From assembly GCA_028703835.1 (NCBI GenBank), contig JAQVMB010000001.1, forward strand, positions 15,455 through 79,454: a DNA stretch of 64,000 bases, read 5' to 3'. Below the pieces are notes generated by a model that was given only the letters and a program-made list of their open reading frames with translations, did no database searches and had not been told where the DNA came from. The translations under genes were made by a program, and so were the position numbers. Positions 3,128 through 56,930 of the stretch are shown one piece after another. Source of the stretch: Candidatus Peribacteraceae bacterium. GTDB taxonomy: Bacteria; Patescibacteriota; Gracilibacteria; Peribacterales; Peribacteraceae. Each line of letters begins with the position of its first letter. The first letter of the stretch is position 1.

Positions 3128-3583
3128 ATGCCCACCAAGAAACGTTTCACCGACGACAGCTACCGCAAGGAACCCTGGTTCCGTGCGCTCTGCTCAGCCT
3201 TCCTCTCCTGCAAGAATGAAGAAGAGATGGGCAGCCTCTTGCGGGATATCGGCACCCTCTCCGAATTGCAATCATGGGGAGAGCGCCTGGAGGTGGCAAA
3301 GCTCCTCGTGCAGGGGTGGAGCTATCGGGAAGTGGCGCGGAGGACGGGAGCGAGCACCACCACGGTTACCCGCGTTGCGCGGTTCATCGAGAATGGGGAG
3401 GGAGGATATCGCAAAATCCTCCACGCCCATCGGCACCACCGCACACAAACAACCGTTAAAACCAGAGACAATACAAACAACATCAATACAAGTTCAGCCC
3501 TTACAGAAAACAAAAAGTCTGAACAAATTTCTATCCTTCATAAGTATCTGCACCGGAAGCAGTCCCCTTCTTCCCATGAGTGA
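3128..3583 (+). CDS. TrpR / YerC-YecD family helix-turn-helix protein
   Basis: The sequence from the ATG at 3128 (WFRALCSAFLSC..EEEMGSLLRDIGTLSELQSWGERLEVAKLLVQGWSYREVARRTGASTTTVTRVARFIENG) resembles the Trp-repressor-like family. Overlaps the ribD start by 8 nt. Confidence 0.7.
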   Translation: MPTKKRFTDDSYRKEPWFRALCSAFLSCKNEEEMGSLLRDIGTLSELQSWGERLEVAKLLVQGWSYREVARRTGASTTTVTRVARFIENGEGGYRKILHAHRHHRTQTTVKTRDNTNNINTSSALTENKKSEQISILHKYLHRKQSPSSHE

Positions 3584-18376: not shown

Positions 18377-18743
18377 ACTTCTTCAGCAGCCTCTCGACCA
18401 TTTCCAGCAGGCTCTTGATCGTCATGTCTTTCTTCACGAAGAAATCATCCGCGCCCAATTCCCGTCCCTTCTTCCGGTAGTCTTCGCGGTCGAAATTCGT
18501 CAGAAGGATGACGGGGTAGGGACGCTCTTTCGGCAGTTGCGCCAGCACCTGGAATCCGTCCATCTTCGGCATGCTGATGTCGCAGACGAGGAGGTCCGGC
18601 GGGTTCTGCAGCACCTGGCGCAACGCCTCTTCCCCGTCCGACGCCGGCACGACGTTGTACCCGGCGAGGGAGAACTTCTTCACGTAGATGCTGCGCAGCA
18701 ACGCATCGTCTTCCGCAAAGAGAATGGTCGGAATGTGGTTCAT
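18375..18743 (-). CDS. Single-domain CheY-like response regulator
   Basis: ILFAEDD...DLLVCDISMPKMDG...ILLTN..., 122 aa. TATAAT lies 9 nt upstream of the ATG. Confidence 0.85.
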   Translation of the reverse strand: MNHIPTILFAEDDALLRSIYVKKFSLAGYNVVPASDGEEALRQVLQNPPDLLVCDISMPKMDGFQVLAQLPKERPYPVILLTNFDREDYRKKGRELGADDFFVKKDMTIKSLLEMVERLLKK

Positions 18744-18867
18744 CAACCGTACATTATACGCCGTTTTTTGCGGGCGGTACAGGACATTCGGAAGGCTCCC
18801 CGCTTCCGGTCGGGGTTGCGGGAAGGGATGGCGAAGAAGGAGAAAATCTGCTAGAATAGAAGGAAAC

Positions 18868-20655
18868 ATGCACAACAGAAACGCCCTCGCCGTCGCGCTC
18901 CTGGGATGTTCGGTCCTGGCGCTTGCGGCTGTCCGTGCGGGGTCGTGGACGGCATCGGTGGACTGCGCCCTGGAACCGTTCGCCCCCGAATGCCTGTCGG
19001 GACTGTCGCAGGAATCGAGTTCCAATCCGCGTGTGCTTTGCGGGAACAGCCGGATCGATCCCGGTGAACAATGCGACGACGGCCGCATGAACGGCGCAAC
19101 GACGTGTTCGCTCACCTGCACGTTCTTCTCCTGCGGAGACGGCACGGTGTCGCTGCATCTGGGTGAACAGTGCGAGCCGGAGAGCGCGATCGTGACGGTG
19201 ACCGATCCCGTCACCGGGGAGACGGTCGAGGAGAAGATTTTCGATGCGCCGGCATGTGGCGTGTATTGCACCGTTCCCGTCTGCGCTCCCGGCGGCTCGT
19301 GCATCGGCGGCTGCAAGCGGCGCTATCTGTCCGCCTGCGCTTCCTCCGCTTCGTCCGCCCGCGCCGAGTACGTCCTGCCTCCTGCCGCACTCACGCCTGC
19401 GTCCTCTTCGTCGGCCGCCGCTGTGGCGGTTTCGTCTTCCGCCGCCCCGGCGCCGGTCATCCTGCAGGTTCCGGTCCCGGAAACCGTCCACAATGCGGCG
19501 CTTCCCGCATGCGGCAACGGCACGACGGAGAACCGGGAAGAGTGCGACGACGGCAACCGCAATTCCGACACGCGCCCCGACGCCTGCCGCACCAGCTGCA
19601 CGCTGCCCCGCTGCGGGGACGGGACGCGGGACCGCGGCGAACAGTGCGACGACGGCAACGGCGTGAACGACGATGCCTGCACGAACGACTGCCGCCTGCC
19701 GCGTTGCGGCGACGGCATCCCGCAGGAGCGGGAGGAATGCGACGACGGCAACAAGGTGGCGCACGACGATTGCACCAATGACTGCCGGTTCCCCGCGTGC
19801 GGGGACGGCATCATCCAGAAGAACGAACAGTGCGACGACGGCAACGGCGACAACGGCGACGGCTGCAGCAATGCCTGCCGCCTGGCGCGCTGCGGCGACG
19901 GCATCCTGCAGGAGGACGAAGAATGCGACGACGGGGCGCGCAATTCCGACATCCGCTCCGACGCGTGCCGCACGGAGTGCGTCCTGCCCCTCTGCGGGGA
20001 CGGCGTCCGCGACAAGGGCGAGGAGTGCGATGACGGGGCGGGCAATGCAAACGACCGTCCCGGCGCCTGCCGCGTCTCGTGCCGGCTCCCGCGCTGCGGG
20101 GACGGGATCATCGACCCCGGCGAGCGTTGCGACGACCTGAACGACGGCTCGGGGGACGGGTGCTCGTCCCGGTGCCAGGTGGAACGCGGGTTCTCCTGCG
20201 ACGGTGCTCCCAGCGAATGCGTGGAAATTCCGACAACGGCCGCTTCCTCTTCCTTCGCACCATCCGTTCTGTGCGGGAACGGAACGCTGGAGCAGGGCGA
20301 ACAGTGCGATGATGGCGCGCGCAATTCGGATACCCACACGGATGCCTGCCGCACCGATTGCCGCCTGCCGCGTTGCGGGGACGGCGTGAAGGACGGCGAA
20401 GAGGAGTGTGACGGCGGTGAGACGTGCACGCAGACGTGCAAGCTCGTGTCGTCCCTCGTGCTGTCGCTGGAGGACGGACAAGAGGACATGCGCGGGACGG
20501 CGGTCGTCGCGCTCACGGCGCTGGAAGCCGTCCTCGTGGTTCTCTTCCTCTTCCGCAAGACGCTCGCGCGTCTCATCGGCATCAAGGAGCCGCGGCAGAA
20601 GAAGCCGTCCTTGGACGACATCCCTCTGAGCGAGATCGAGATGCCGGGGAAGTGA
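18868..20655 (+). CDS. Cys-rich repeat surface protein (Myxococcus-type CxxCGDG...EQCDDGN repeats) with signal peptide and C-terminal TM anchor
   Basis: About 10 repeats of C(R/T)LPRCGDG....GE.CDDGN...D.C...C. N-terminal MHNRNALAVALLGCSVLALAA. C-terminal hydrophobic segment AVVALTALEAVLVVLFLF. Confidence 0.8.
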   Translation: MHNRNALAVALLGCSVLALAAVRAGSWTASVDCALEPFAPECLSGLSQESSSNPRVLCGNSRIDPGEQCDDGRMNGATTCSLTCTFFSCGDGTVSLHLGEQCEPESAIVTVTDPVTGETVEEKIFDAPACGVYCTVPVCAPGGSCIGGCKRRYLSACASSASSARAEYVLPPAALTPASSSSAAAVAVSSSAAPAPVILQVPVPETVHNAALPACGNGTTENREECDDGNRNSDTRPDACRTSCTLPRCGDGTRDRGEQCDDGNGVNDDACTNDCRLPRCGDGIPQEREECDDGNKVAHDDCTNDCRFPACGDGIIQKNEQCDDGNGDNGDGCSNACRLARCGDGILQEDEECDDGARNSDIRSDACRTECVLPLCGDGVRDKGEECDDGAGNANDRPGACRVSCRLPRCGDGIIDPGERCDDLNDGSGDGCSSRCQVERGFSCDGAPSECVEIPTTAASSSFAPSVLCGNGTLEQGEQCDDGARNSDTHTDACRTDCRLPRCGDGVKDGEEECDGGETCTQTCKLVSSLVLSLEDGQEDMRGTAVVALTALEAVLVVLFLFRKTLARLIGIKEPRQKKPSLDDIPLSEIEMPGK

Positions 20656-28263: not shown

Positions 28264-29934
28264 TTGGTATGGATGCAGAAAACCTGCAAACAATGTGCAA
28301 TGGCATTCAGCGTCACCGCTGATGACCTCGCCTTCTACGACAAGGTCTCGCCCGTTTTCAATGGAAAGAAAGAATCCATCCCGCCGCCGCCGTTGTGTCC
28401 GGAGTGCCGCATGCGGTCGCGTCTCACCTTTCGAAACGAACTCAGCCTGTTTCGTCGTCCTTGCAGCAAATGCAAGAAGGAAATGATTTGCATGTTTGCA
28501 TCGGACGCATCGTATTCCGTCTACTGTCACGATTGCTGGTGGAGCGAAGATTTCGATGCCTTGCATTCCGGGAGAGATATTGATTTATCGAGGTCATTCT
28601 TTGCCCAACTGTCAGAACTGATTGCTCTGACGCCTCTTCCGCATCTCGTGATCGGCGATTGTGAGAACAGCGATTTTACCAATTATTCATGGCAGAATCG
28701 AAATTCATATCTTCTTTCAAGCTCCGATTACAACGAGGACTGCTATTTCTCCACGTACCTGTTCCGTTCTGTCTCCTGCACGGACTGCACTTTCGTGAGT
28801 GATTGTGAACTCTGTTACGAATGTGTGGATGTGAAGCAATGCTATCGTTCCTCTTTCCTGCAGAATTGCCAAAATTGCTCGGATTGCCTGCTTTGCTACG
28901 ACTGTCATTCCTGTACGGATTGCATCGGATGCGTCGGGCTGCGCAATAAACATCATTACATTCTCAACAAGCAATACTCGAAGGAGGACTTTGAACGAGA
29001 GAAGGGAACAATGAAACAGGAGCGACTGCAGTCACGTTTCGAGACGTTGAAGATGTCATTTCCCCGCGAGTATGCCGATATTGAACAGTGCGAGGCATCT
29101 TCCGGAGATCATTTGCGTTCATGCAAGAATGCAAGACATTGTTTCGATCTCGTGGAAGCGCAGGACTGTGCATATTGCGCACTCGGGCTCAAGCCAAAGG
29201 ATTGCCAGGATTGTACGGGTGTACCGGGGAGCGAACTCAGTTACCAAGTGGCAGCGTGTCCGGAAAATTATTCTCTGCAATTTTCGGCAGTGATATGGCC
29301 AAAATCCGCATTTCTTCAATACTGTCTGTTTTCGCGGTCATCGAACCGTTGCTTCGGCTGCATTTCACTTCACAAGAATGAATACTGCATCCTCAACAAG
29401 CAGTACACAAAAGAAGAATATGAAAAATTGGTGCCGCAGATCATCGAGAAGATGCGGGGGGACGGAGAGTGGGGCGAGTTCTTCCCCGTGGAACTTTCGC
29501 CGTTTGCCTACAATGAGACGGTGGCGCAGGAATACTTCCCGCTGACGAAGGAGGAAGTGTTGAAGAGGGGATGGAAGTGGAGAGATGAAACGGATGAAAT
29601 GCCGAAAGTCTCGAAAGTCATTCCCGCTTCCCAACTGCCCGATTCCATCGACGATATTCCCGATGATATTCTCAACTGGGCCATCCGGTGCGAAGCAACC
29701 AAGAGGCCGTTCAAGATCATCAAGCAGGAATTGGAGTTCTACCGAAAGATGCGTTTCCCCGTCCCGCATTTCCATCCCGATGAACGGCACAAGCGAAGAA
29801 TGGCGCTCCGCAATCCTCGCAAACTCTGGCAGAGGAAGTGCGCGAAGTGCCGGAAGGGGATCGAGACCACCTATGCACCTGATCGTCCTGAAATTGTTTA
29901 TTGTGAGGAATGCTATCTCAAAGAAGTGTATTAA
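28264..29934 (+). CDS. Cytoplasmic multi-zinc-ribbon, Cys-rich repeat protein of unknown function (paralogue 1)
   Basis: About 42 Cys. N-terminal CKQC...CPEC and CSKC...CHDC pairs. Two internal Cys-repeat blocks, each ending in ILNKQY(S/T)KE(D/E). C-terminal [14 protein letters not shown]...VYCEECYLKEVY. No signal peptide. Confidence 0.7.
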   Translation: MVWMQKTCKQCAMAFSVTADDLAFYDKVSPVFNGKKESIPPPPLCPECRMRSRLTFRNELSLFRRPCSKCKKEMICMFASDASYSVYCHDCWWSEDFDALHSGRDIDLSRSFFAQLSELIALTPLPHLVIGDCENSDFTNYSWQNRNSYLLSSSDYNEDCYFSTYLFRSVSCTDCTFVSDCELCYECVDVKQCYRSSFLQNCQNCSDCLLCYDCHSCTDCIGCVGLRNKHHYILNKQYSKEDFEREKGTMKQERLQSRFETLKMSFPREYADIEQCEASSGDHLRSCKNARHCFDLVEAQDCAYCALGLKPKDCQDCTGVPGSELSYQVAACPENYSLQFSAVIWPKSAFLQYCLFSRSSNRCFGCISLHKNEYCILNKQYTKEEYEKLVPQIIEKMRGDGEWGEFFPVELSPFAYNETVAQEYFPLTKEEVLKRGWKWRDETDEMPKVSKVIPASQLPDSIDDIPDDILNWAIRCEATKRPFKIIKQELEFYRKMRFPVPHFHPDERHKRRMALRNPRKLWQRKCAKCRKGIETTYAPDRPEIVYCEECYLKEVY

Positions 29935-36787: not shown

Positions 36788-36845
36788 AAAACGAGGAGCA
36801 GACAAAGGGGTCTTGGGAACTAAATAATTGAGCTATTATCTCTTC

Positions 36846-37106
36846 ATGTCTCCCGACGCCCCGCCACCCCCGGAGAAAGAAACCAAAGCCGACTGGAAAG
36901 CCGCCTGGCTCGCGCTGCAGCTGGCCTGGGACCTGGGGTGGATCATCGCGCTTCCGGCCGCCGCTTTCGGCTTCGGCGGGGCCTATTTGGACAAATACCT
37001 CGGTACCTCACCGCTTTTCCTCCTCCTGGGCTTCGCCCTAGCCATCACGCTGTCGTATCTGGGTGTCCGGCGGAAGTTGAAGGCAATAATGAAGAAAAGG
37101 TTTTGA
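36846..37106 (+). CDS. AtpZ/AtpI-like small membrane protein
   Basis: Two TM helices (WIIALPAAAFGFGGAYLD; LFLLLGFALAITLSYLG), directly upstream of atpB. Confidence 0.6.
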   Translation: MSPDAPPPPEKETKADWKAAWLALQLAWDLGWIIALPAAAFGFGGAYLDKYLGTSPLFLLLGFALAITLSYLGVRRKLKAIMKKRF

Positions 37107-37107
37107 C

Positions 37108-37195
37108 GGAGGATTCCGAAGAGACCGAGGAATCCGAGGATGTTTTGCTGGTATCCTCGGACTCCTTGGCTTCGTCGGCTTCGTCGGATTCTTCC
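37108..37195. repeat. 9-mer word palindrome between the atpZ-like gene and atpB
   Basis: GGAGGATTCCGAAGAGACCGAGGAATCCGAGGAT-gttttgctggt-ATCCTCGGACTCCTTGGCTTCGTCGGCTTCGTCGGATTCTTCC. Confidence 0.85.
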
Positions 37196-37243: not shown

Positions 37244-38047
37244 ATGGCTGCGATTGAAGCCCCAACACTGGCCTCCGAAACGATCGCCCATCTCGGGTCG
37301 TTCGAGATCCGCAACACGCTCATCATGGCGTGGCTGGCCATGCTCGTGCTCTTCGGCGTCGGCTTCGCCACGCGTCGGACGGGCTACAAAGACGTGCCCG
37401 GCCGCTTCCAGGCGCTCATGGAGATGATCGTGGAGGGGTTCTTCAACTTCTGGGATTCCATCGTGGGTGACCGCGCGCAGACGCGCCGGTTCTTCCCGCT
37501 CGTCACCACCATCTTCATCTTCCTCGCCGTGGCGAACTGGATGGGCATTTTCCCGGGCGTGGGCAGCATCACCGTCGAGGGGATGCACAACGGGCACCTG
37601 ATCCCCATGCCCATCTTCCGCTCCATGAACGCGGACGTGAACATGACGCTCGCGGTCGCCCTCATCTCCGTGGTCATGACGCAGGTCTTCGGCATCGCGG
37701 CGCTGGGCATCCTTCCCTACGCGGGCAAGTTCTTCGTGGCCCCGTGGCGCGATCCCATCGGCAGTTTCATCGGCATCCTGGAATTGATCGCGGAATTCGC
37801 CAAAGTCATTTCCTTCACCTTCCGTCTCTTCGGCAACATTTTCGCGGGTGAAGTGCTCCTGGTCGTCATCTCCTTCCTCATGCCGTACGCCGCCCCGATT
37901 CCTTTCCTGGGATTGGAAATCTTTGTCGGATTCATCCAGGCATTGGTGTTTTCATTACTTACACTCGTTTTCGTCAAGATGGCGACAGCGGCGCATGGGG
38001 GGCACGAAGGAGAGGGGCACGGGAGCCATGCTGCGGCGCATGCCTGA
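37244..38047 (+). CDS. atpB: Fo ATP synthase a subunit, with a His/Gly-rich C-terminal tail
   Basis: Conserved FTFRLFGNIFAGEVLL (essential Arg) and polytopic membrane topology. Tail is AAHGGHEGEGHGSHAAAHA. Confidence 0.9.
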   Translation: MAAIEAPTLASETIAHLGSFEIRNTLIMAWLAMLVLFGVGFATRRTGYKDVPGRFQALMEMIVEGFFNFWDSIVGDRAQTRRFFPLVTTIFIFLAVANWMGIFPGVGSITVEGMHNGHLIPMPIFRSMNADVNMTLAVALISVVMTQVFGIAALGILPYAGKFFVAPWRDPIGSFIGILELIAEFAKVISFTFRLFGNIFAGEVLLVVISFLMPYAAPIPFLGLEIFVGFIQALVFSLLTLVFVKMATAAHGGHEGEGHGSHAAAHA

Positions 38048-38074
38048 AAGAGCCGTCAGAAGCAAAAAAGACGA

Positions 38075-38103
38075 TTGATATTGCGCCGAGAAAGTGGTAT
38101 AAT
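38075..38103 (+). promoter_or_regulatory. Near-consensus sigma-70 promoter for Cys-rich gene A
   Basis: TTGATA, 17-nt spacer, TGgTATAAT (extended -10), about 18 nt before the ATG at 38121. Confidence 0.6.
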
Positions 38104-38120
38104 CATTGCACATACAAACA

Positions 38121-40601
38121 ATGCACAAGATCAATGTTCGTCTCGGCATAACCTTGTTGTTGCTCCTGTCCGGCACGGTCATCATCCTGCGGTACGGTTC
38201 CAATGTCAGCCTGAGGGCATGCGATCCGGGTGACTCCGAAACGTGGACGGAGTGCGATGTGCCTTGGTGCGGCCAGGACGGCGAATGCCACGACGGTTGC
38301 ACCGAGGACGATGACTGCACGTACGCGGGAGAATGGTGCACCAGGGTCGGTTCGTGCGTATCGAATTGTAATTCGGACGATGAATGCCCTCTCGGAACAA
38401 TATGCAGTGCACCTGATTGTATTGCAGATCCTTGCGGCGACGGTTCCTGCGACAGCGGGGAGGGATGCGCCGCCGACTGCGCCACCGAACTGTTCTGCGA
38501 CGATCTGGCGGACAACGACCAGGACGCGAGCATGGACTGCGACGACTCCGATTGCGCCGAGGACCCCGCCTGCATCTGCGGCAACGGCCAGATCGACGAG
38601 GGTGAGAACTGCCATACTTGTGAAGCTGATGCCGGCTGTACTTCACCGGACGTCTGTCTGGAATCCTCCGAGGGCGCCGGTGACTGGTCTTGCACTGCTT
38701 GCGGCAACGGCCAGGTCGATGAGGGTGAGGATTGCGCCAACTGCTCCGCCGATGCCGGGTGCGACGAGGGGGAATCCTGCGTTGATATCGCGAACGAGCA
38801 AACCTGCGTCGATACCTGCACCATCCTCACCTGCGGCGCCTGTGAATCGTGCAGTGAAGGAGTTTGTCACACGGATTGTACGGGGAGCGAAGTGTGCGAT
38901 GAGAATACCAATAGTTGTACCCTCTGCGGCAACAGCCAGATGGATGAAGGCGAAAACTGCGAAACCTGTCCCGCCGATGTTGGTTGTGCAGGTAACGAAA
39001 CTTGCGATACGGGGATATGCGTCAGTAACTGCTCTTCCACGTGTGCTGCCGACGAGACTTGTGCATACTCGAATGATACTTGGATCTGCGTCAGCAACTG
39101 CGCAGGCGGGGCAGGCTGTGCCTCTGACGAGACTTGCACGGACAGCGAGGGCACTTGGACCTGCATCAGTAACTGCGCAGGCGGGGCCGGCTGTGATGAA
39201 TGCTCCACCTGCGGTTATGACGCAGTCGAAGGGTGGATATGCGATTCCAGCTGTCAGGACAATGAGATCTGCGCTCAAAATAACAACACTTTTTCCTGCA
39301 CCATCTGCGGCAACGGCCAGATCGACGAGGGTGAGAACTGCCATACTTGTGAAGCTGATGCCGGCTGTACTTCACCGGACGTCTGTCTGGAATCCTCCGA
39401 GGGCGCCGGTGACTGGTCCTGCACTGCTTGCGGCAACGGCCAGGTCGATGAGGGTGAGGATTGCGCCAACTGCTCCGCCGATGCCGGGTGCGACGAGGGG
39501 GAAACTTGCACGGACGATGGCGCGGGGGATTACAGCTGCGTCTCGGATCCTTTCTGCGGCGACGGCATCGTCAATGCCGAAGAATCATGCGATGACGGCG
39601 ATACGGACACGAGCGACGGTTGCTCGGCAACGTGTACCGTGGAAACGGGATGGGCATGTGCCGGAAGTTCGCCGAGTGTCTGTTACACGACGTGCGGTGA
39701 CGGATTCATGATGGGTGGGGAAGAGTGCGATGACGGTGATGCGGCGAACGGCAACGGTTGTTCGGCCACCTGTACGGTGGAAGCAGGCTGGTCCTGCACC
39801 GACACTTCACCCAGCGCCTGTTCCACCGGCTGCGGTGATTCGATTACCGCCGGCAACGAAGAATGTGACGACGGGAACCAGACGGATGGCGACGGGTGCT
39901 CCGCCGCTTGCGACCGGGAGGAGTGCGGGGACGGCGCCGTCAACAACGGCGGAACCGAGACATGTGATGATGGGAACGTGACGGCGTCCGACGGATGCTC
40001 TTCGATGTGCGCCATCGAAACGGGGTACGCCTGCTCGGGAACACCCAGCAGATGCTTCGTTTCTGTTCCTGCTTCTTCTTCCTCTTCTTCGTCGGCGCGC
40101 GAACAGAGCGCAGGGGGCGGAAGAGGCGGGAGCGGCGGCACGAACGCGCAGACCATCGGCGGGGCGGGGGAGAGTGCGGTCCGCGGCCGCCAGGAACAGT
40201 TGCCATCCGGCGCAAGCGGAACGTCATCCGCCTCGAGTGTCCCGGGTGTCACGGTTCCCGTCTCCGGACCGAACCCATGGCTTCTCCCGCCCGTCCGCGA
40301 AACCGTGAGCGTGCGCGAACTGCGGGAAAAAGTGGGGACGGGCATCCACGCGGCCGCTTCCGCGAACACCGACGTGACGCGCGGCGAAGCGGTGGCGGCG
40401 GTGCTGGGGCGTTACGGCTTCGATGTGCCTGCCGCCGATGACCGCGCCCTGGCCGGCGTGGCACGTTCGCTCGGCATCCTCCGCGGCTATGACGGCAAGG
40501 TCCTGGCCCTGGACCGTCCCGTGTCCCCGAGAGAGCTCTCGACGCTGATGCTCCGTTCGCGCGTGGCGGTGCGCAGGGTGGAGCGGCGGCAGGGGCGGTA
40601 A
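38121..40601 (+). CDS. Cys-rich repeat surface protein A (N-terminal anchor/signal, C-terminal SLH-like module)
   Basis: MHKINVRLGITLLLLLSGTVIIL, many CGNGQ(I/V)DEGE(N/D)C and CDDG..... repeats, and the C-terminal GILRGYDGKVLALDRPVSPRE. Confidence 0.8.
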   Translation: MHKINVRLGITLLLLLSGTVIILRYGSNVSLRACDPGDSETWTECDVPWCGQDGECHDGCTEDDDCTYAGEWCTRVGSCVSNCNSDDECPLGTICSAPDCIADPCGDGSCDSGEGCAADCATELFCDDLADNDQDASMDCDDSDCAEDPACICGNGQIDEGENCHTCEADAGCTSPDVCLESSEGAGDWSCTACGNGQVDEGEDCANCSADAGCDEGESCVDIANEQTCVDTCTILTCGACESCSEGVCHTDCTGSEVCDENTNSCTLCGNSQMDEGENCETCPADVGCAGNETCDTGICVSNCSSTCAADETCAYSNDTWICVSNCAGGAGCASDETCTDSEGTWTCISNCAGGAGCDECSTCGYDAVEGWICDSSCQDNEICAQNNNTFSCTICGNGQIDEGENCHTCEADAGCTSPDVCLESSEGAGDWSCTACGNGQVDEGEDCANCSADAGCDEGETCTDDGAGDYSCVSDPFCGDGIVNAEESCDDGDTDTSDGCSATCTVETGWACAGSSPSVCYTTCGDGFMMGGEECDDGDAANGNGCSATCTVEAGWSCTDTSPSACSTGCGDSITAGNEECDDGNQTDGDGCSAACDREECGDGAVNNGGTETCDDGNVTASDGCSSMCAIETGYACSGTPSRCFVSVPASSSSSSSAREQSAGGGRGGSGGTNAQTIGGAGESAVRGRQEQLPSGASGTSSASSVPGVTVPVSGPNPWLLPPVRETVSVRELREKVGTGIHAAASANTDVTRGEAVAAVLGRYGFDVPAADDRALAGVARSLGILRGYDGKVLALDRPVSPRELSTLMLRSRVAVRRVERRQGR

Positions 40602-40701
40602 AGATGCGCAGCAAGCGCTCCAGCTTTCCGTATGCGAGCGGCGGACGCTATTCGTCTCCCATTCCGTTTCGGGAATCGAGGGTTTGGTCGACTTCAAAAC
40701 A

Positions 40702-40804
40702 GGTGTTCTCCCTGCTGACGCTGGTCTTCGTAAAAATGGCCACGGCGGCGCATGGAGGGCACGAAGGAGAGGGACACGGGAGCCATGCTGCGGCGCATGC
40801 CTGA
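40702..40804 (+). pseudogene. Displaced duplicate of the last 33 codons of atpB
   Basis: Encodes VFSLLTLVFVKMATAAHGGHEGEGHGSHAAAHA*, identical in protein to atpB 37946-38047, but 13 codons differ synonymously. Similarity decays upstream of 40702. Confidence 0.7.
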
Positions 40805-40832
40805 ACGAGCAAACGGAAGCCAAAAATCAAAG

Positions 40833-40861
40833 TCGATACTGTGCCGAAAAAGTGGTATAAT
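40833..40861 (+). promoter_or_regulatory. Duplicated sigma-70 promoter for Cys-rich gene B
   Basis: TCGATA, 17-nt spacer, TGgTATAAT. Homologous to 38075-38103. Confidence 0.55.
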
Positions 40862-40878
40862 AATTGCACATACAAACA

Positions 40879-42438
40879 ATGCCCAAAATGAGCATTCGCA
40901 TCGGCTTCCTGCTGCTGTTGCTCCTGTCCGGCACGGTCATTATCCTGCGGTACAGTACCAATCTCAGCCTGAGGGCATGCGATCCGGGTGACGAAAGCAC
41001 ATGGGCGGAATGCGATGTGCCTTGGTGTGGCCAGGACGGTGAATGCCACGACGGTTGCACCGAGGATGATGACTGCACGTATGTGGGAGAATGGTGCGCA
41101 CAGAACGGCGGCTGCTATTCCTCCTGTACCACGGACGACGAATGTCCCCTTGAAACCATTTGCTCGGATTCGGCCTGCATTGAAGATCCTTGCGGCGACG
41201 GTTCCTGCGGCAGCGGGGAGGAATGCGCCGCCGACTGCAGTTCGGAAACGTACTGTGATGACGGCGTGGACAACGACCAGGACGTGTACACGGACTGCGA
41301 CGACTCCGATTGCGAGGGGGAGCCTGCCTGCGATCCCTGCGGCGACGGTTCCTGCGACCCCTTGGAACAATGCGCCGCCGACTGCAGTTCGGAAACGCAC
41401 TGTGATGACGGCGTGGACAACGACGAAGATACCGGCATCGATTGCGACGATTTGGACTGCGAAGCGAACCTTGTTTGCATGTGCGGTAACGGCTCCTGCG
41501 ATGACGGCGAGGTCTGTGCCGCCGACTGTCCTGATGAAGCGTACTGCGAGGACGGCGTGGACAATGACGAAGACGGGGATACGGACTGCGACGATTCCGG
41601 TTGTGCAGCCGATTCCGCCTGTATTCCGGATTGCGGCAATGGCAGTCTCGATGACGTCGAGGAATGCGATGACGGGAATACCTCGGATTATGATGGCTGT
41701 TCGGCGGATTGCATCGTCGAGGAGGGATACGAATGCACCGTCGTGGGCGAAGCATGCAATCTCATTTGCAGCAACGGTTTGATCGATGATGGGGAGGCCT
41801 GTGATGACGGCGACGCGGATGCCGGTGATGGCTGTTCGGCAGCTTGCGCCATTGAGGACGGCTACGAGTGCACGGGTGAACCGAGCGTCTGTACGGAAGA
41901 GGAGGAAGAAATTTCCTCTTCCTCGTCATCGTCGTCTTCGGCCTCTTCCGTCCTTCGTCCGCAGAGCATGGGCGGGGGCAGGGGCGGAGCCGGCGGCACG
42001 AATGCGCAGACCATCGGCGGGGCGGGGGAGAGTGCCGTTCGCGGCCGACAGGAACAGATGCAATCCGCCTCAAGCGCGCAACGCATCACGGTTCCCGTCT
42101 CCGAGCCGAACCCATGGCTTCTCCCGCCCGTCCGCGAAACCGTGAGCGTGCGCGAACTGCGGGAAAAAATGGGGACGGGCATCCACGCGGCCGCCCCCTC
42201 CGACGTTCAAGTGTCGCGTGGCGAAGCGGTGGCGGCGGTGCTGGACCGGTACGGCTTCGACATGCCGGCCGCCGATGACCGCGCCCTGGCCGGCATGGCG
42301 CGTTCGCTCGGCATCCTCCGCGGCTATGACGGCAAGGTTTTGGCTCTGGATCGTCCCGTGTCCCCGAGCGAGCTCTTAACGATGATGCTTCGTTCGCGCG
42401 TGGCGGTGCGCAGGGGAGAGCGGCGGCAGGGGCGGTGA
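40879..42438 (+). CDS. Cys-rich repeat surface protein B (paralogue of A)
   Basis: N-terminal ~70 aa and C-terminal ~160 aa are colinear with protein A. The central Cys/Asp-rich repeats differ (DCSSETxCDDGVDNDxD units). Confidence 0.8.
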   Translation: MPKMSIRIGFLLLLLLSGTVIILRYSTNLSLRACDPGDESTWAECDVPWCGQDGECHDGCTEDDDCTYVGEWCAQNGGCYSSCTTDDECPLETICSDSACIEDPCGDGSCGSGEECAADCSSETYCDDGVDNDQDVYTDCDDSDCEGEPACDPCGDGSCDPLEQCAADCSSETHCDDGVDNDEDTGIDCDDLDCEANLVCMCGNGSCDDGEVCAADCPDEAYCEDGVDNDEDGDTDCDDSGCAADSACIPDCGNGSLDDVEECDDGNTSDYDGCSADCIVEEGYECTVVGEACNLICSNGLIDDGEACDDGDADAGDGCSAACAIEDGYECTGEPSVCTEEEEEISSSSSSSSSASSVLRPQSMGGGRGGAGGTNAQTIGGAGESAVRGRQEQMQSASSAQRITVPVSEPNPWLLPPVRETVSVRELREKMGTGIHAAAPSDVQVSRGEAVAAVLDRYGFDMPAADDRALAGMARSLGILRGYDGKVLALDRPVSPSELLTMMLRSRVAVRRGERRQGR

Positions 42439-42524: not shown

Positions 42525-43181
42525 ATGATGTTTCGTCACCGTCTTCCCCTGCTCTTGCTCTGTCTCGGGCTCCTCTCCGCGTGCGACCGCCTCGGGGAGA
42601 ACTCCTGGCGCGCAGCCGTGTCGTCCTGCGGCAACAAGCTGGTCGAAGACGGGGAGCAGTGCGACGACGGCAACACGGCCCCAGGAGACGGATGCGACCC
42701 CGCCTGCATCACGGAGTACCGCTGCACTTGCGTGGGGCAGCCGAGCAAGTGTTCCTGCACGTGCGGTGACGGCGTCGTGCAGAAAGGGGAGCAGTGCGAT
42801 GATGCCAATGTCAACGAAGAAGACGGTTGCGATCTGTTCTGCCGCGTGCGGACGGGATGGGCCTGCCGGGGGGCGCCGAGCGCGTGCCATTTGAAACGTT
42901 GCGGCGACCAGTTGGTGGATCCTGGGGAGAAGTGCGATGACGGGAATGATATGTCCGGCGACGGGTGTTCGGGCATATGCGCGACGGAGAAGGGGTGGGC
43001 CTGCGCCGGAGAGCCGAGCGTGTGCCATCCCGTGCTGTGCGGCGACGGCATCAGGGACGGTGCGGAAAAATGCGATGACGGGAACGGGGAGGGAGGGGAC
43101 GGGTGCGGCATGAATTGCACGGTGGAGAAGGGGTGGACATGCGCCGGTTCGCCCAGCGCGTGCACGCAGAAAGGGAAATAA
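42525..43181 (+). CDS. Cys-rich repeat lipoprotein C
   Basis: Lipobox-like LLLCLGLLSAC, then five CGDG....GE.CDDGN..(G/S)GDGC repeats. Confidence 0.75.
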   Translation: MMFRHRLPLLLLCLGLLSACDRLGENSWRAAVSSCGNKLVEDGEQCDDGNTAPGDGCDPACITEYRCTCVGQPSKCSCTCGDGVVQKGEQCDDANVNEEDGCDLFCRVRTGWACRGAPSACHLKRCGDQLVDPGEKCDDGNDMSGDGCSGICATEKGWACAGEPSVCHPVLCGDGIRDGAEKCDDGNGEGGDGCGMNCTVEKGWTCAGSPSACTQKGK

Positions 43182-43351: not shown

Positions 43352-43380
43352 TTGATTCCTTTTGCGCATGTCTTTACAAT
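43352..43380 (+). promoter_or_regulatory. Candidate sigma-70 promoter for atpEFHAG
   Basis: TTGATT, 17-nt spacer, TACAAT, about 40 nt upstream of the atpE ATG. Confidence 0.45.
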
Positions 43381-43420: not shown

Positions 43421-43690
43421 ATGCCCGCGACCGAAGTTGCCCAAGCAGCAGGAGCCGTCACCGGTTCCATTTTCTCGGATAAGAACACCCTCGTAGCCGC
43501 CACCATGGCGCTCGGCTCCGCCGTTCCCGCCTTCTCCATCGGTTGGATCGCAAGCAAGGCCATGGAGGCCATCGGCCGCAATCCGGAAGCGGGGGCCAAG
43601 ATCCAGACGTCCCTCGTTCTCTCCGTCGCCTTCGCCGAGGCCATCGCCATCTACGCGCTCGTCGTCTCGCTCATCATCAAGTTCGTCTGA
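43421..43690 (+). CDS. atpE: Fo ATP synthase c subunit
   Basis: Two-helix hairpin protein with GRNPEAG loop and the carboxylate helix SVAFAEAIAIYALVV. Confidence 0.9.
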   Translation: MPATEVAQAAGAVTGSIFSDKNTLVAATMALGSAVPAFSIGWIASKAMEAIGRNPEAGAKIQTSLVLSVAFAEAIAIYALVVSLIIKFV

Positions 43691-52669: not shown

Positions 52670-53491
52670 TCAACGCTTCCGCAGCTTGTTGATGTAGCCG
52701 AGCGGTACGGAAACGGGGGACACAATGCCGCGCCCCATCGTTTTCAGGATGCCCGCGGGTTCGCTGTTCCAAACCTTCCCATGCCAGCGGCCGAGGCCGT
52801 AGAGGGCTCCTCCGGCTACCGCTGTACTCGCGACGAAAGGCAGTGCAGATGAAGCGGCACCGATGCCGCTCAGCGTGCTCAGGAATCCGCCCAATGGAGC
52901 CATGACGGCGGCGGTGCTCACACCGGATGCAACTGCCACCCCCACCGCCGTGCCCGTGAGAGCGCCGACAACGGGATGTCCCAGTTTCTTCCCTGCGTAG
53001 TATCCGGTCGCAGTTCCCAGCAGGGGAATACCAGACGAAATTCCCAACGACGATATCGTGAGAGCACCCGGGATTTGTGAAGCAAGAATGGTGTTCACAC
53101 CCGTGGCAACACCGTACGCGAGAACCGGTGCGGCCGCACCGGTTCCCAGCGCCGCGGCCACGGTCCCCTTCATGACCGTTTCCCGTGGGACGTCGGTTCT
53201 CTCCTGCGAAGGTGGCACGGCGAACGCGGGGAACATATCCGGCGGAATGTGGTTCTCCACGGCAGGACGCCGTGGCATTACCGGCTTCGGTTTCGGGGAT
53301 TCTTGGTTTGGTTCCTTCTGTACTTCCTCTTGTCGCAGGGCATTGGTTCCGATATCAATGAAGGGAGAGAGACGGTCACGGGTGTCGTAGCGCCGTCCTT
53401 CCAGGAGAAGGCGCACGTCTTCGCGCGGCGCATCCCTTTCGGGAGGACGGAGAGAATCGGTCTCTGACAGATGTTGATTATTGATGTGCAT
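52670..53491 (-). CDS. Hypothetical membrane protein (disordered N-terminus, Gly/Ala-rich TM C-terminus)
   Basis: Composition and hydrophobic Gly-rich segments. No family recognised. Confidence 0.45.
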   Translation of the reverse strand: MHINNQHLSETDSLRPPERDAPREDVRLLLEGRRYDTRDRLSPFIDIGTNALRQEEVQKEPNQESPKPKPVMPRRPAVENHIPPDMFPAFAVPPSQERTDVPRETVMKGTVAAALGTGAAAPVLAYGVATGVNTILASQIPGALTISSLGISSGIPLLGTATGYYAGKKLGHPVVGALTGTAVGVAVASGVSTAAVMAPLGGFLSTLSGIGAASSALPFVASTAVAGGALYGLGRWHGKVWNSEPAGILKTMGRGIVSPVSVPLGYINKLRKR

Positions 53492-53604
53492 GTTAAATAT
53501 ATTATACTATATTCATATCATATAGACAACTATAAACCTTTGGGCGACTATCCCCTCATATATAGAAAGTAGTACATGATTAATATGACATTATTTAGTC
53601 AAAT

Positions 53605-54894
53605 TTATTCATCCAATACCTCTGATGATTTTCCTCCGCCGATCATCAGAATGTATGGCAACAATAATGGATCTGAAAATCTATACTTATATGATCTCTG
53701 CTTGCCCACTTTTTCTAATATCTTTCCTCTGTCTTCACAAAATTCATTGATATGTTTTTGGAAGGTAGAAATCTTAATATTCTGCCGTTTTAATATTCGA
53801 CTAAGATGAGGAACAACATCTGATAAATAAAAATAGCCGAGATCATCTCGCTCTTTTGTGGAAGCAATTGCACAAGCGAGAAGAACGTCATCATAAAGAG
53901 CATCCTTATGTGCACTATGAATTGCTTTGTAGTATCTGTCTCTAATTGATTGTTCCGATTCATTTACAGCTTTGTGAAAAGAATCGAGTACATCTTTTCG
54001 AAATATTTTTCTGGAACCATGTGAAAGGGCTTCCCGTGTTGAATGCAATCCAATTAGATGTGTGTAATGGGGCATCCCCTGAGATGTGCGAACGATTAGC
54101 GAGGCGGCTGATTCGTCAAAACCTGTTCCTAGCGCATTTGAAGCCTTGCTCAATATTTCTCGCAGTTCCCTTTGATTCATTCTTGGGAGTTGTATTTGAG
54201 TAAGACATCTAACTATTGATGCATGATCTTTAACCAAATCATTTATTGTGTCCGCAACCCCCACAAGGATGATCGTGGTATCAATTCCATAATCAGATAA
54301 TGCTTTAATTAAATCTGTATAATTTTTTCTCACTGCGTGGTCTGCACGATCAAATTCATCAAAAATAAAAACTGATCCTTTCAGCCCCCTAAGCATGCGC
54401 CTCACATCATCAATGGAAAGCTTATCTCCTGAGTTAATGCCCATTTTCTTCTTTAATGAAATTAAATTCTTCTCCTGACCGATATCAAATCCAATAATAT
54501 CGTCGGCAACCAGCATTTCATCAAACGCCTTTTTCCATAAATCACTAAAAGAATCATCTGCGGTAGCATTCACTCGTACAACTAAACGACGATCCTGCCC
54601 TGATAATTCAGTTAGATTTAAAAGAATTTTCGCCATATTCGCTAGAGATGTTTTCCCAACTCCCCTCTCACCAAATAGAACTATATGGAATCCAGTTTGT
54701 CTAACCGAATCAGTAATACGAGTAAGCTGATCCCAGCGTCCCGCAAAGAACTCTCTTCCATTAATTGGAGTTCGTGGTTTAAAAATTGACCCAGCCTTTA
54801 TATGCAGTGCCAGGGACTCATCATCACTTAACTGAATCTCGCTCATGCTGTGCATAGTATCATAAGTTCTCCGACTATACAAAATAGAAGTCAT
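53605..54894 (-). CDS. AAA+ ATPase (archaeal-ATPase / ORC-Cdc6-like NTPase), passenger gene
   Basis: F.GRWDQL...IVLFGERGVGKTSLA (Walker A) and SVFIFDEFDR (Walker B). The C-terminal ~130 aa may be a winged helix. About 34% GC. Confidence 0.75.
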   Translation of the reverse strand: MTSILYSRRTYDTMHSMSEIQLSDDESLALHIKAGSIFKPRTPINGREFFAGRWDQLTRITDSVRQTGFHIVLFGERGVGKTSLANMAKILLNLTELSGQDRRLVVRVNATADDSFSDLWKKAFDEMLVADDIIGFDIGQEKNLISLKKKMGINSGDKLSIDDVRRMLRGLKGSVFIFDEFDRADHAVRKNYTDLIKALSDYGIDTTIILVGVADTINDLVKDHASIVRCLTQIQLPRMNQRELREILSKASNALGTGFDESAASLIVRTSQGMPHYTHLIGLHSTREALSHGSRKIFRKDVLDSFHKAVNESEQSIRDRYYKAIHSAHKDALYDDVLLACAIASTKERDDLGYFYLSDVVPHLSRILKRQNIKISTFQKHINEFCEDRGKILEKVGKQRSYKYRFSDPLLLPYILMIGGGKSSEVLDE

Positions 54895-54974
54895 ACTAAA
54901 GAACAACCTTCTCTAACTTATTGACATAGATGTATAACTATACTCTATTGAAAGAAACTCATTATCCGACTACT

Positions 54975-55163
54975 ATGAAATTCATGGCAAAGAAGAGAAT
55001 TACAACGACGGTTCTGGGCAAACAAGACAGCAAATTTGTTTATCAATTGCTAGTAACTTCCTCTGGCGAAAATACCTCCAGACTAGCAAGGTTAGCAAAG
55101 GAAGTAATACAATCAGAACATGGTGCTAATGCGCCCCTTTCAACCAACAGATCCAAGAGGTGA
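54975..55163 (+). CDS. Small ORF upstream of and overlapping the GNAT gene (possible RHH-type antitoxin)
   Basis: KKRITTTVLGKQDSKFVYQLLVTSSGENTSRLARLAKEVI has a strand-helix-helix-like pattern. This is weak and the start is uncertain. Confidence 0.3.
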   Translation: MKFMAKKRITTTVLGKQDSKFVYQLLVTSSGENTSRLARLAKEVIQSEHGANAPLSTNRSKR

Positions 55164-55728
55164 TTCTTTATTAAGAACAGAAGTGCGGACAGATGAGCAC
55201 AAGGGTCTGCTAGATTTTTATCTAAATGAGGCAAAAAACTGTGAGGAGAATCTAACATCTTTTACATACGATATTGTTTCAGACGATGGAAATTTCTTAG
55301 GTTTTTTCTGTGTCTCAAATAGCCTATTACTTTTAGATGAAAAAGAAATCATGACTGAATTTAAGCGAAAAAAGAACGTTTCATTTGCACCGCCAGCGAC
55401 GCTTCTTGGAAAGCTTTATATATGTAATTGTAATCGTGGAACTGGGATTGGCTCAGAGGTTATCTTATATATAGCAAAAGAAATTTGTTTCAAATCGAAA
55501 TCAGCCTCTCGCTTTATTATTATTGATATTAATGCTCGTAATCCTAATGCCGTTAATTTCTATACAAAAAGAGGTTGGCTACACCCTCGGACATATGCCA
55601 GAAAAATGTTTTTTGACCTCTTGAGATTTAAAATATTTTTGAAAGCTTATAAGGAGCAATGTCGGAACTCATCAGCCGCAGAAATATTGCGATTATTTGC
55701 AATATATCTCCAAGAAGAACAGAACTAG
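55120..55728 (+). CDS. GNAT-fold acetyltransferase-like protein, passenger gene
   Basis: Acetyl-CoA motif A R-G-T-G-I-G (LYICNCNRGTGIGSEVILY) and motif B NPNAVNFYTKRGW. Confidence 0.6.
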   Translation: MVLMRPFQPTDPRGDSLLRTEVRTDEHKGLLDFYLNEAKNCEENLTSFTYDIVSDDGNFLGFFCVSNSLLLLDEKEIMTEFKRKKNVSFAPPATLLGKLYICNCNRGTGIGSEVILYIAKEICFKSKSASRFIIIDINARNPNAVNFYTKRGWLHPRTYARKMFFDLLRFKIFLKAYKEQCRNSSAAEILRLFAIYLQEEQN

Positions 55729-55770
55729 TTTTCTTGCTGTTGAAAACCAAGAGTATAATACAAATTATGG

Positions 55771-56676
55771 CTAATCAAAGTACCGACAAGCACCGATTCT
55801 TTGAGATACTAAGACGTGCGGCAACCCCACACGCGAAAGTAAAAAATGAAAAAGATGCTGATCGGCAGAATGAGCGTAATTATAACGAAAAGAAAATTCT
55901 CCAAGATACAAAGGAAGATACTTTGCAGAAATAACATGGTAGGTTCCATCCAGTGACCGCTTCAACTGCGACCAGAACCCCTCAATGGTGTTCGTGTACG
56001 CGCCGCCTTTCCTATACTGCTTCTCCTTGTGCTTCACCGTCGCATGGCCGAGGCCTTCGACGTTGGTGATGCTCTTGTAGGCTCGAAGCTCGTCCGTAAG
56101 GAGGACTGACCCCTTGGCGATGTTGTTTCGGATGGGGTGCAGGAGGCTCTCTTCCGTCGTGTCCTTCACAACTTCCGCGTGAACCTTGCCCTTTCGCTGA
56201 ACCGATCCAAACACGATGGATTTGTTCTCCATCTTGTGGCGCATGTTCCTCTTCCCGCCAATCCACGTTTCATCCGCTTCCACTTCGCCAGACTGTAGGG
56301 CGGGTTCCTCGTTCATCATCTTCCGTATCTCCTTCGCCATTCTCCACGCGGTTTTGTAGGTCACGCCCACCTGTCGTTCAATCTCCTTCGCCGCAACTCC
56401 GTTCCTCGATTGAGACATGAGGAAGATCGCGTGAAACCACTTCACCAAGTCGGTGGAAGACTTCTCGAAGATCGTTCCCGCCTTCGGGCTGATCTGAGAC
56501 TTTCCGCAGTAGCAGACGTAGTGCGCTGTTTTCTTCTGGCGGTAATACTGTCCGATCAGACCACACTTCGGACATGCGCTCTTGCTGTGGAATTGCTGGA
56601 AAAGATGTTCCAAACAAGCCGCGTCGTCGGGGAAGAGCTTATGGAATTGGGAGATGGTGAACTTCGGAAGCTTCAT
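55771..56676 (-). CDS. IS1595-family DDE transposase
   Basis: N-terminal zinc ribbon (CPKCG...YVCYCG), an HTH region, and the DDE region ending in TNTIEGFWSQLKR. Starts about 40 nt inside the right IR. Confidence 0.9.
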   Translation of the reverse strand: MKLPKFTISQFHKLFPDDAACLEHLFQQFHSKSACPKCGLIGQYYRQKKTAHYVCYCGKSQISPKAGTIFEKSSTDLVKWFHAIFLMSQSRNGVAAKEIERQVGVTYKTAWRMAKEIRKMMNEEPALQSGEVEADETWIGGKRNMRHKMENKSIVFGSVQRKGKVHAEVVKDTTEESLLHPIRNNIAKGSVLLTDELRAYKSITNVEGLGHATVKHKEKQYRKGGAYTNTIEGFWSQLKRSLDGTYHVISAKYLPLYLGEFSFRYNYAHSADQHLFHFLLSRVGLPHVLVSQRIGACRYFD

Positions 56677-56930
56677 ATCTAGGGGGGAACTGCCCTAGAG
56701 ACTACTATTCGGCTTCCTATATGTCAAGGGATAGTCGCCAACCTTTGTGTCTCCTCAGCGAGAAATTACCTATCAATTTCACAAAATGAATCCAGAATGA
56801 GTGGGACGAGTGACGGGCCAGAGCCGGTTGGATTTTTGACATCTGACCCGAGAAAGGAAGGGGAAGGTTTGGAAGGTGGAACCGCAGGTTCCCCTTCCAA
56901 TACTAAAAAATGCGAGCGCGCAGCGTGAGC

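Follow-up and report, generated by a model that had tools for sequence, protein, structure and literature searches.

A 64,000-nucleotide (nt) stretch of the genome of an uncultured Candidatus Peribacteraceae bacterium of the Peregrinibacteria (GenBank assembly GCA_028703835.1, contig JAQVMB010000001.1, positions 15,455 to 79,454 of the forward strand), hereafter called the window and numbered from its first letter, carries an ATP synthase operon in which atpB (F0 subunit a) and atpE (c subunit) are separated by additional DNA. The genes are arranged in the order atpD, atpC, atpI-like, atpB, the insert, atpE, atpF, atpH, atpA and atpG, and the gap between atpB and atpE is the sole interruption of the operon. 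The window atpB gives full-length matches to PF00119 and TIGR01131 and stands in an F0F1 ATP synthase operon context. The inserted block, which measures 5.3 kb and extends from 38048 to ~43340, contains three DUF4215 genes, here named CysA, CysB and CysC, together with a second, orphan copy of the atpB 3′ end located upstream of CysB. The working gene has its own, live end immediately upstream of CysA, so that two units, A and B, lie head to tail with a repeat spacing of 2757–2758 nt, each starting within atpB sequence and continuing through a promoter-like site into a Cys gene.

The two atpB ends (37946–38047 and 40703–40804) have the same translation, namely VFSLLTLVFVKMATAAHGGHEGEGHGSHAAAHA followed by a stop codon. 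They differ by 14 nt distributed over 13 codons, all synonymously, and since the synonymous share of single substitutions in this stretch is 25.9%, the probability that 14 of 14 changes are silent is ~6 × 10⁻⁹. The identical peptide and the list of 13 synonymous codon pairs had been reported in a first-pass annotation made from the letters alone, and both are confirmed. That annotation had also described a repetition of the promoter and of the beginning of the Cys gene downstream of each end, which is correct and reaches further than was stated, as homology continues for ~450 nt into the Cys genes and reappears over their last ~500 nt. The spacer 3′ of the atpB stop is ~60% identical between the units, the promoter and leader are ~95% identical, and the 5′ untranslated region after both promoter-like sites is an exact copy. 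The CysA and CysB proteins share 60% identity in their N-terminus and 52% in their C-terminus and differ in their central repeats, again as first described. Overall, units A and B form a mosaic of islands with 93–100% identity (exact runs up to 63 nt) lying between patches with 45–70% identity. Homology between the units beyond the stop codons of the Cys genes was tested and is not significant.

Divergence between the two atpB ends is unevenly distributed. In the first 14 codons of the repeat (40703–40744, zone 2), 12 of 42 nt differ and affect 11 codons, always silently. In the following segment (40745–40805, zone 3), which comprises the His-rich tail, the stop codon and one further base, identity reaches 97% (58/60 in the tail), and the longest exact run is 31 nt (38018–38048 = 40775–40805). 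The proportion of differing codons, 11/14 in zone 2 versus 2/19 in zone 3, is significantly unequal (Fisher P = 1.6 × 10⁻⁴). Zone 2 also exceeds both the synonymous background between CysA and CysB (46 of 241 same-amino-acid codons; P = 2.5 × 10⁻⁶) and the expectation for full saturation under host codon usage (6.1 of 14 codons; P = 1.8 × 10⁻³). Because the subunit-a tails of relatives are hypervariable, both in sequence and in length, the near-identity of the two tails implies a recent common ancestor of both ends or an exchange in that place. RNA structure at the tail and junction regions was nowhere beyond that of shuffled sequences.

Upstream of the orphan end the picture changes abruptly. 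A filler that follows CysA leads into a decayed atpB remnant (40653–40702, zone 1), the collapse of similarity into frameshifted remains noticed at first pass, whose collinear alignment at ~64% identity beats 5000/5000 shuffles (z = 4.4) and all but 3/5000 genomic controls. About nine disabling events (six first- or second-position substitutions and three insertions or deletions) are found in these 50 nt and none in the 102 nt that follow, which has an estimated probability of ~10⁻⁴ under a uniform process. Since the decay stops abruptly at 40702/40703, this position is taken as the joint of two DNA histories, that of a long-unconstrained remnant and that of a recently constrained end. The hexanucleotide GGTGTT is common to both junctions (37945–37950 and 40702–40707) and constitutes one candidate crossover site, the 97% identical block 42 nt further on being the other. 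Further atpB remnants after CysB or CysC were searched for, and none was significant. The features of the locus are collected in Table 1.

Table 1. Coordinates (window numbering) and properties of the features in and around the atpB–atpE interval
Feature	Position	Strand	Remarks
AtpI-like small membrane protein (PF09527)	36828..37106	+	precedes atpB, also in relatives
atpB (F0 subunit a), complete working copy	37244..38047	+	at most 86% amino acid identity to Peribacteraceae subunit a
Live-atpB stretch of rare AT-ending codons	37892..37987	+	synonymous sites unusually diverged from all relatives; coextensive with zones 1 and 2
Live last 33 codons and stop of atpB, start of unit A	37946..38047	+	
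Near-identical block: His-rich tail codons, stop, one further base	37988..38048	+	97% identical to 40745–40805
CysA promoter-like site, TTGATA-17-TGnTATAAT, 11/12	38075..38103	+	strong, extended −10
CysA, 826 amino acids, DUF4215/TIGR02232 cysteine-rich acidic repeat protein	38121..40601	+	N-terminal hydrophobic segment
Junction filler	40602..40652	+	no similarity detected to either atpB or the DNA that follows CysB
66-amino-acid open reading frame (ORF)	40604..40804	+	ATG 2 nt past CysA stop, through remnant into orphan end; no family
Decayed atpB remnant (zone 1)	40653..40702	+	~64% identity; deletions of 1, 3 and 2 nt; internally frameshifted
Orphan last 33 codons and stop of atpB, start of unit B	40703..40804	+	protein identical to live end; typical codons; nearer to relatives' DNA than live copy
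CysB promoter-like site, TCGATA-17-TGnTATAAT, 10/12	40833..40861	+	strong, extended −10
CysB, 519 amino acids, DUF4215 protein	40879..42438	+	paralogue/allele of CysA
CysC, 218 amino acids, DUF4215 protein	42525..43181	+	third gene of inserted block
atpE promoter, TTGATT-17-TACAAT followed by CCGCGCGC	43352..43380	+	kept in relatives; right edge of insertion
atpE (c subunit)	43421..43690	+	directly 3′ of atpB in relatives

The sequence is held by one public run only, the short-read landfill metagenome SRR22315503, which was examined in the form of Logan contigs (k = 31). Contig 9555030 of this independent assembly (333 nt, depth 10) is an exact match to 40472–40804 and thereby covers the 3′ end of CysA, the filler, the remnant and the orphan end. 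Four Logan contigs, with depths of 8.4, 9.7, 10 and 6.6, meet at the 31-nt exact repeat, which is precisely where the k = 31 graph breaks. No contig of the run joins an intact atpB to the orphan version at 80% likeness, and neither a second haplotype nor an alternative joint was found in it; on other contigs, the atpB protein was found only on a 1.4-kb Logan contig of the same run. A concatenation of two strain alleles, the alternative raised at first pass, is therefore disfavored, as joining intact alleles cannot create contig 9555030.

The ancestral arrangement is given by 24 Peribacteria loci that reach past atpB, among them those of the closest known relatives (82–86% subunit-a identity). 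In these loci atpE directly follows atpB after a spacer of 48–330 nt, with one exception, Candidatus Peribacter riflensis, where the spacer holds an unrelated membrane ORF of 121 amino acids (locus L087, 6887–7252). The relatives' spacer ends in a conserved atpE promoter and the same promoter is present in the window at 43352–43380. Because atpB adjoins atpE in relatives, the DNA from 38048 to ~43340 represents a lineage-specific insertion. The comparison across relatives has thus established the adjacency, although a one-cassette state, with which the first-pass annotation contrasted the present one, was not encountered, and a second atpB end is absent from all 24 loci.

The atpB–atpE spacer tolerates insertions, and the spacers of the atp operon are recurrent insertion points in this family, given the unrelated small genes that they hold in other Peribacteria: a gene of the 23S-rRNA-IVP family lies between atpD and atpC in Candidatus Peribacter riflensis (L087, 4756–5178), and a 137-amino-acid ORF between atpC and atpI in the closest relative (L082, 7109–7522). 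In the window itself, the atpI–atpB spacer (37105–37190, with a T-rich run to 37235) contains a long imperfect palindrome with arms GAGGATTCCGAAGAGACCGAGGAATCCGAGGAT / ATCCTCGGACTCC...TCGTC, after which comes TTTCC(C)ATTTTCAATTTTCCATTTTCCATT. The palindrome, taken as single-stranded DNA, folds with −22.4 kcal/mol (z = −3.2, 0/200 shuffles as good). Similar CCGAAGAA/TTCTTCGG palindromes with a TTTCCATTTTCAATTT motif were seen by eye in the atpB–atpE spacers of other Peribacteria (L006, ~4080–4230; L005, 8848–8863), so that the palindrome of the window could be a small palindromic spacer element.

Codon usage bears on which copy has changed. In zone 2 the live end contains seven rare codons (TTT, TCA, TTA, CTT, ACA twice and GTT) and ranks at the 0.1 percentile among windows of 14 codons from the ATP synthase genes. 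The codons of the orphan end are typical, in agreement with the contrast drawn at first pass. The GC content at third codon positions (GC3) of these 14 codons is 0.50 in the live and 0.86 in the orphan copy, compared with 0.86–1.0 in all relatives but one. Polarization with nine relatives assigns ~7 changes to the live lineage and ~5 to the orphan lineage (CTG, GTA, AAA and two GGA in the tail), the latter all silent (0.259⁵ = 1 × 10⁻³). For a dead 102-nt fragment of the age implied by the synonymous divergence between CysA and CysB, ~11 changes would be expected, ~8 of them non-silent; the orphan has ~5 and 0, respectively. An old duplication in situ followed by neutral decay is rejected because all changes of the orphan are silent. 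The orphan probably belonged to a working atpB until a short time ago. The proposal that the two ends diverged within functional atpB genes, and not by the drift of a dead fragment, is accordingly sustained by silent-only changes on both lineages.

The origin of the rare codons is a separate issue. Synonymous divergence of the live atpB from its three closest relatives is 0.58–0.64 in 37892–37987 compared with 0.25–0.35 elsewhere, and this atypical stretch starts near 37892, that is ~54 nt 5′ of the repeat boundary. The closest relative, L082, also has a low GC3, in the part equivalent to zone 1. The patch of rare codons is for this reason partly a local property of the gene in the clade and not proof of foreign DNA, and its earlier interpretation as a sign of foreign origin is weak, considering also that it begins outside the perfect repeat. 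Three explanations of the composition were rejected: a foreign 3′ third of atpB, suggested by a GC3 drop from 37754, since the same drop exists in L082; a mechanism of the diversity-generating retroelement type, since the substitutions are not adenine-specific; and a low-GC donor of the patch, since GC3 is low just upstream in L082 and the adjoining tail is near-identical between the copies.

The three Cys proteins match the DUF4215 and TIGR02232 repeats above curated cut-offs, and the combination of these repeats with an N-terminal hydrophobic segment suggests that CysA and CysB are secreted surface proteins. A comparison of CysB with 5.8 billion proteins returned, besides CysA, only repeat-level DUF4215 matches and none that included its N- or C-terminus. 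Within CysA, two segments of 208 nt located 729 nt apart (38573–38780 and 39302–39509) are 99% identical: two Cys-repeat modules have been duplicated within the gene very recently. A fourth DUF4215 cysteine-rich gene (655 amino acids) is situated at 18688–20655, 17 kb 5′ of the atp locus, and has only repeat-level similarity to CysA, CysB and CysC. Strains of Peribacteria vary mainly in their cysteine-rich extracellular proteins; these strain-variable proteins have Myxococcus-type repeats and export signals, and differ by insertions and deletions (PMC4736985). Each of the Candidatus Peribacter riflensis genomes is furthermore reported to have one direct repeat whose length is close to the insert size; it borders a segment of ~3 kb, which would be lost if the assembly took another path (PMC4736985). 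This repeat poses the same topological problem as the present locus and is apparently not at atpB in that species.

These data are best accommodated, with a probability of about one half, by the stacking of diverged haplotypes of the atpB-end/Cys locus through general recombination, in which a working atpB end was recently displaced. A block of three DUF4215 genes has entered the atpB–atpE spacer and holds two homologous head-to-tail units, each made of the last 33 atpB codons, a strong promoter and a Cys gene, the left end completing the working gene and the right one being the orphan. Units A and B would have diverged in separate chromosomes of the population, each end within a functional atpB, before a single recombination event stacked them with a downstream joint at 40702/40703. 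Either a crossover of the unequal or homeologous kind or a homology-anchored insertion of taken-up DNA could account for this event. One end would have stayed in service and the other would have been displaced recently enough to carry no disabling change, while the decayed zone 1 may be a remnant of atpB that is older and unconstrained, lay behind CysA beforehand and travelled with the CysA unit. In this scheme the agent would be general recombination at a hypervariable surface-protein locus and not a self-encoded integrase; the recombination-prone character of the locus follows from the 99% internal repeat of CysA and from the identity mosaic of the two units.

As to the resident unit, the arrival of A and the capture of B are equivalent readings. 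The first-pass annotation favored the former, with unit A coming from a related genome and B being pushed downstream; the coding constraint on both ends that this presupposes has been upheld, but the direction has not, since the structure would be no different had an unequal crossover placed a captured B end behind CysA. A simple donor in a related genome also leaves unexplained both the 97% identical tail next to 42 nt with 29% divergence and the 50 decayed nt next to an intact orphan.

Several observations weigh against the stacking of haplotypes itself. Neither a sister strain with one cassette or none nor other copies of the cassette were found, and the premise of two haplotypes is unobserved; a search of metagenome contigs of the Joint Genome Institute with the tail as a degenerate DNA pattern gave 0 matches. 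The tail is 97% identical between the copies and the adjoining 14 codons are 79% different, beyond saturation, so that a history of uniform divergence fails and either a local synonymous hot region (hinted at by L082) or a further exchange within the tail is needed. The position of a decayed remnant beside an intact orphan needs the extra assumption of an older remnant carried by unit A. Finally, the pairing of contigs at the 31-nt repeat rests on the original assembler, with its reads and k-mers longer than 31 nt.

An unlikely explanation, which nevertheless survives better than the remaining ones, is a tandem duplication in situ. It would have copied ~2.76 kb, starting within atpB and reaching as far as an ancestral Cys gene extended, and the copies would then have diverged in one genome under repeated short gene conversion, which preserves identity in islands such as the tail, the promoter and conserved Cys modules. 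This reading would require neither a donor, nor an integrase, nor a second haplotype, none of which is seen, and it is consistent with the mosaic of near-identical islands amid strongly diverged patches, with the tail island flanked on both sides by diverged sequence, and with the recent duplication inside CysA, which demonstrates that local duplication happens here. The head-to-tail repeat with a single novel junction (40602–40702) is the one expected from a simple tandem duplication, but the mixture of silent and non-silent decay expected of a partial copy was not found: neutral decay is rejected for 40703–40804, where no change out of 14 is non-silent and those of the orphan lineage are all silent. 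With 12 of 42 nt different, the first 14 codons cannot have undergone recent conversion and yet encode the same peptide. To account for this, the orphan might be under indirect purifying selection, its changes being copyable into the live atpB, although such selection, needed to keep zone 2 silent-only, is itself conjectural.

More doubtful is the view of unit A as a small non-autonomous integrative cassette, site-specific for the atpB 3′ end, mobilized by a recombinase acting in trans and bringing its own replacement end, the attachment region 5′ of the crossover having decayed because it was never used. This would account for the sharp switch from decayed to intact sequence at 40702/40703, for GGTGTT at both junctions and for a replacement end with foreign-looking rare codons, and the measured e14 pattern is alike, with 9 silent and 2 conservative changes and a homology that ends abruptly before icdC. 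However, when the unit and 30 more ORFs throughout the window were scanned against Pfam, no integrase, excisionase or other recombinase turned up in or near the unit, in line with the earlier remark that no integrase is visible; the sole transposase of the window is of the IS1595 type and lies 15 kb away. A second copy of the unit is present neither among 5.8 billion proteins nor at the related loci, and the rare-codon stretch starts upstream of the supposed crossover. The homology of CysA with its neighbor CysB in promoter, N-terminus and C-terminus also fits allelic units better than an element and a bystander. Slightly less credible again is the extension of this view to a new kind of integrase-less cassette of the candidate phyla radiation (CPR), made of a promoter and a surface-protein gene and inserting at the end of an essential gene with a silently recoded replacement; rare-codon recoding, confined to the stretch in common with the displaced copy, would then limit recombination with that copy.

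It is improbable that the 66-amino-acid ORF encodes a genuine small protein, coupled to CysA in translation, in which selection keeps the C-terminal 33 residues and leaves the upstream part free. The ORF is intact, with a start codon 2 nt past the CysA stop and a frame restored because the three deletions of the remnant sum to 6 nt, and such a protein would explain decay upstream beside perfect conservation downstream. Nonetheless, it has no exact match on record and no Pfam family, and a HMMER search of 1.84 billion representatives gave only two marginal matches (E > 10⁻⁴), so the conserved small protein contemplated at first pass finds no homologues beyond these. Its hydrophobic run, VFSLLTLVFV, is not long enough to make a membrane helix by itself, and the tail, the least constrained part of subunit a in relatives, is the best conserved here, even as DNA. 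The least probable explanation is an assembly artefact, with two strain alleles concatenated or contigs mispaired at the 31-nt repeat: the source is a short-read metagenome, the evidence consists of contigs and four of them meet where the k = 31 graph breaks, but contig 9555030 spans the junction, intact atpB is never joined to the orphan version, contig depths are similar (6.6–10) and the exact repeat is shorter than ordinary reads and assembler k-mers.

Other regions of the window depart from its general composition. A low-GC island at ~53000–56700 (0.38–0.46 versus ~0.62 elsewhere) includes a transposase of the IS1595 family (ISXO2-like DDE) on the minus strand (55771–56676) and is probably a recent insertion sequence or foreign island. 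An ORF for a RibD-like deaminase/reductase (3183–5096; GC3 0.63, below that of the neighboring genes) has a DUF559 domain, resembling a very-short-patch-repair endonuclease, between two RibD_C matches and could be a gene fusion or contain an inserted endonuclease. Finally, a 556-amino-acid ORF without Pfam match (28264–29934), in a region with a GC content of ~0.50 and a GC3 of 0.59, is compositionally atypical and possibly foreign.

In nature, hypervariable surface-protein loci can expand into an essential operon without damage to it, and the present locus illustrates this cleanly. The displaced end is a molecular fossil and its silent-only differences help to date and orient the event. Given more strains, the locus could reveal how whole promoter–gene units are shuffled in CPR bacteria, which rely on cell-surface contacts, and whether general recombination or an unrecognized site-specific system is at work. 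It also calls for caution in annotation and binning, because k-mer assemblies are interrupted by short direct repeats at such sites, precisely where the gene ends.

Among known systems, homology-facilitated illegitimate recombination after natural transformation inserts foreign DNA by means of one homologous anchor and one microhomology joint. Applied here, with atpB as anchor and GGTGTT as joint, it could leave both incoming and resident anchor-proximal copies; the difference is that no donor is known and that competence of the organism is only presumed. A second related system is tandem segmental duplication or allele stacking at hypervariable surface-protein loci, such as those of the strain-variable cysteine-rich proteins of Peribacteria (PMC4736985). 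The present locus has paralogues with conserved ends, reshuffled central repeats and, in the 99% identical segments of CysA, an internal duplication. However, the published variation concerns tens of base pairs within genes, whereas a whole promoter–gene unit is repeated here, and the repeat reaches into the adjacent essential gene, inside the ATP synthase operon.

A third comparison is with the cryptic prophage e14 and phage 21 in the icd gene of Escherichia coli, since there too an essential or central gene goes on functioning thanks to a replacement 3′ end supplied by the inserted DNA, and the former end stays downstream as an orphan. In strain MG1655, the last 165 nt of icd differ from icdC by 9 silent and 2 conservative changes, compared with 13 silent codon changes and no other in 102 nt here, and in both cases homology is lost abruptly 5′ of the orphan and persists past the stop codon. 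In contrast, e14 measures 15 kb and encodes its own integrase and excisionase, while the present unit has 2.76 kb and no recombinase; no copy of it was found in other genomes, and no alternative joint among the contigs of the run. The cargo of e14 is unrelated to the host genes beyond icdC and that of unit A is a paralogue or allele of the next gene. A further difference is the stretch of ~50 nt in front of the orphan, where homology to the target gene survives in decayed form; moreover, the present case is the sole instance known. The locus thus represents a known phenomenon, the duplication of a target-gene end with a displaced pseudo-end as in e14/icd, in an integrase-less form with stacked surface-protein units in the ATP synthase operon of a CPR bacterium.

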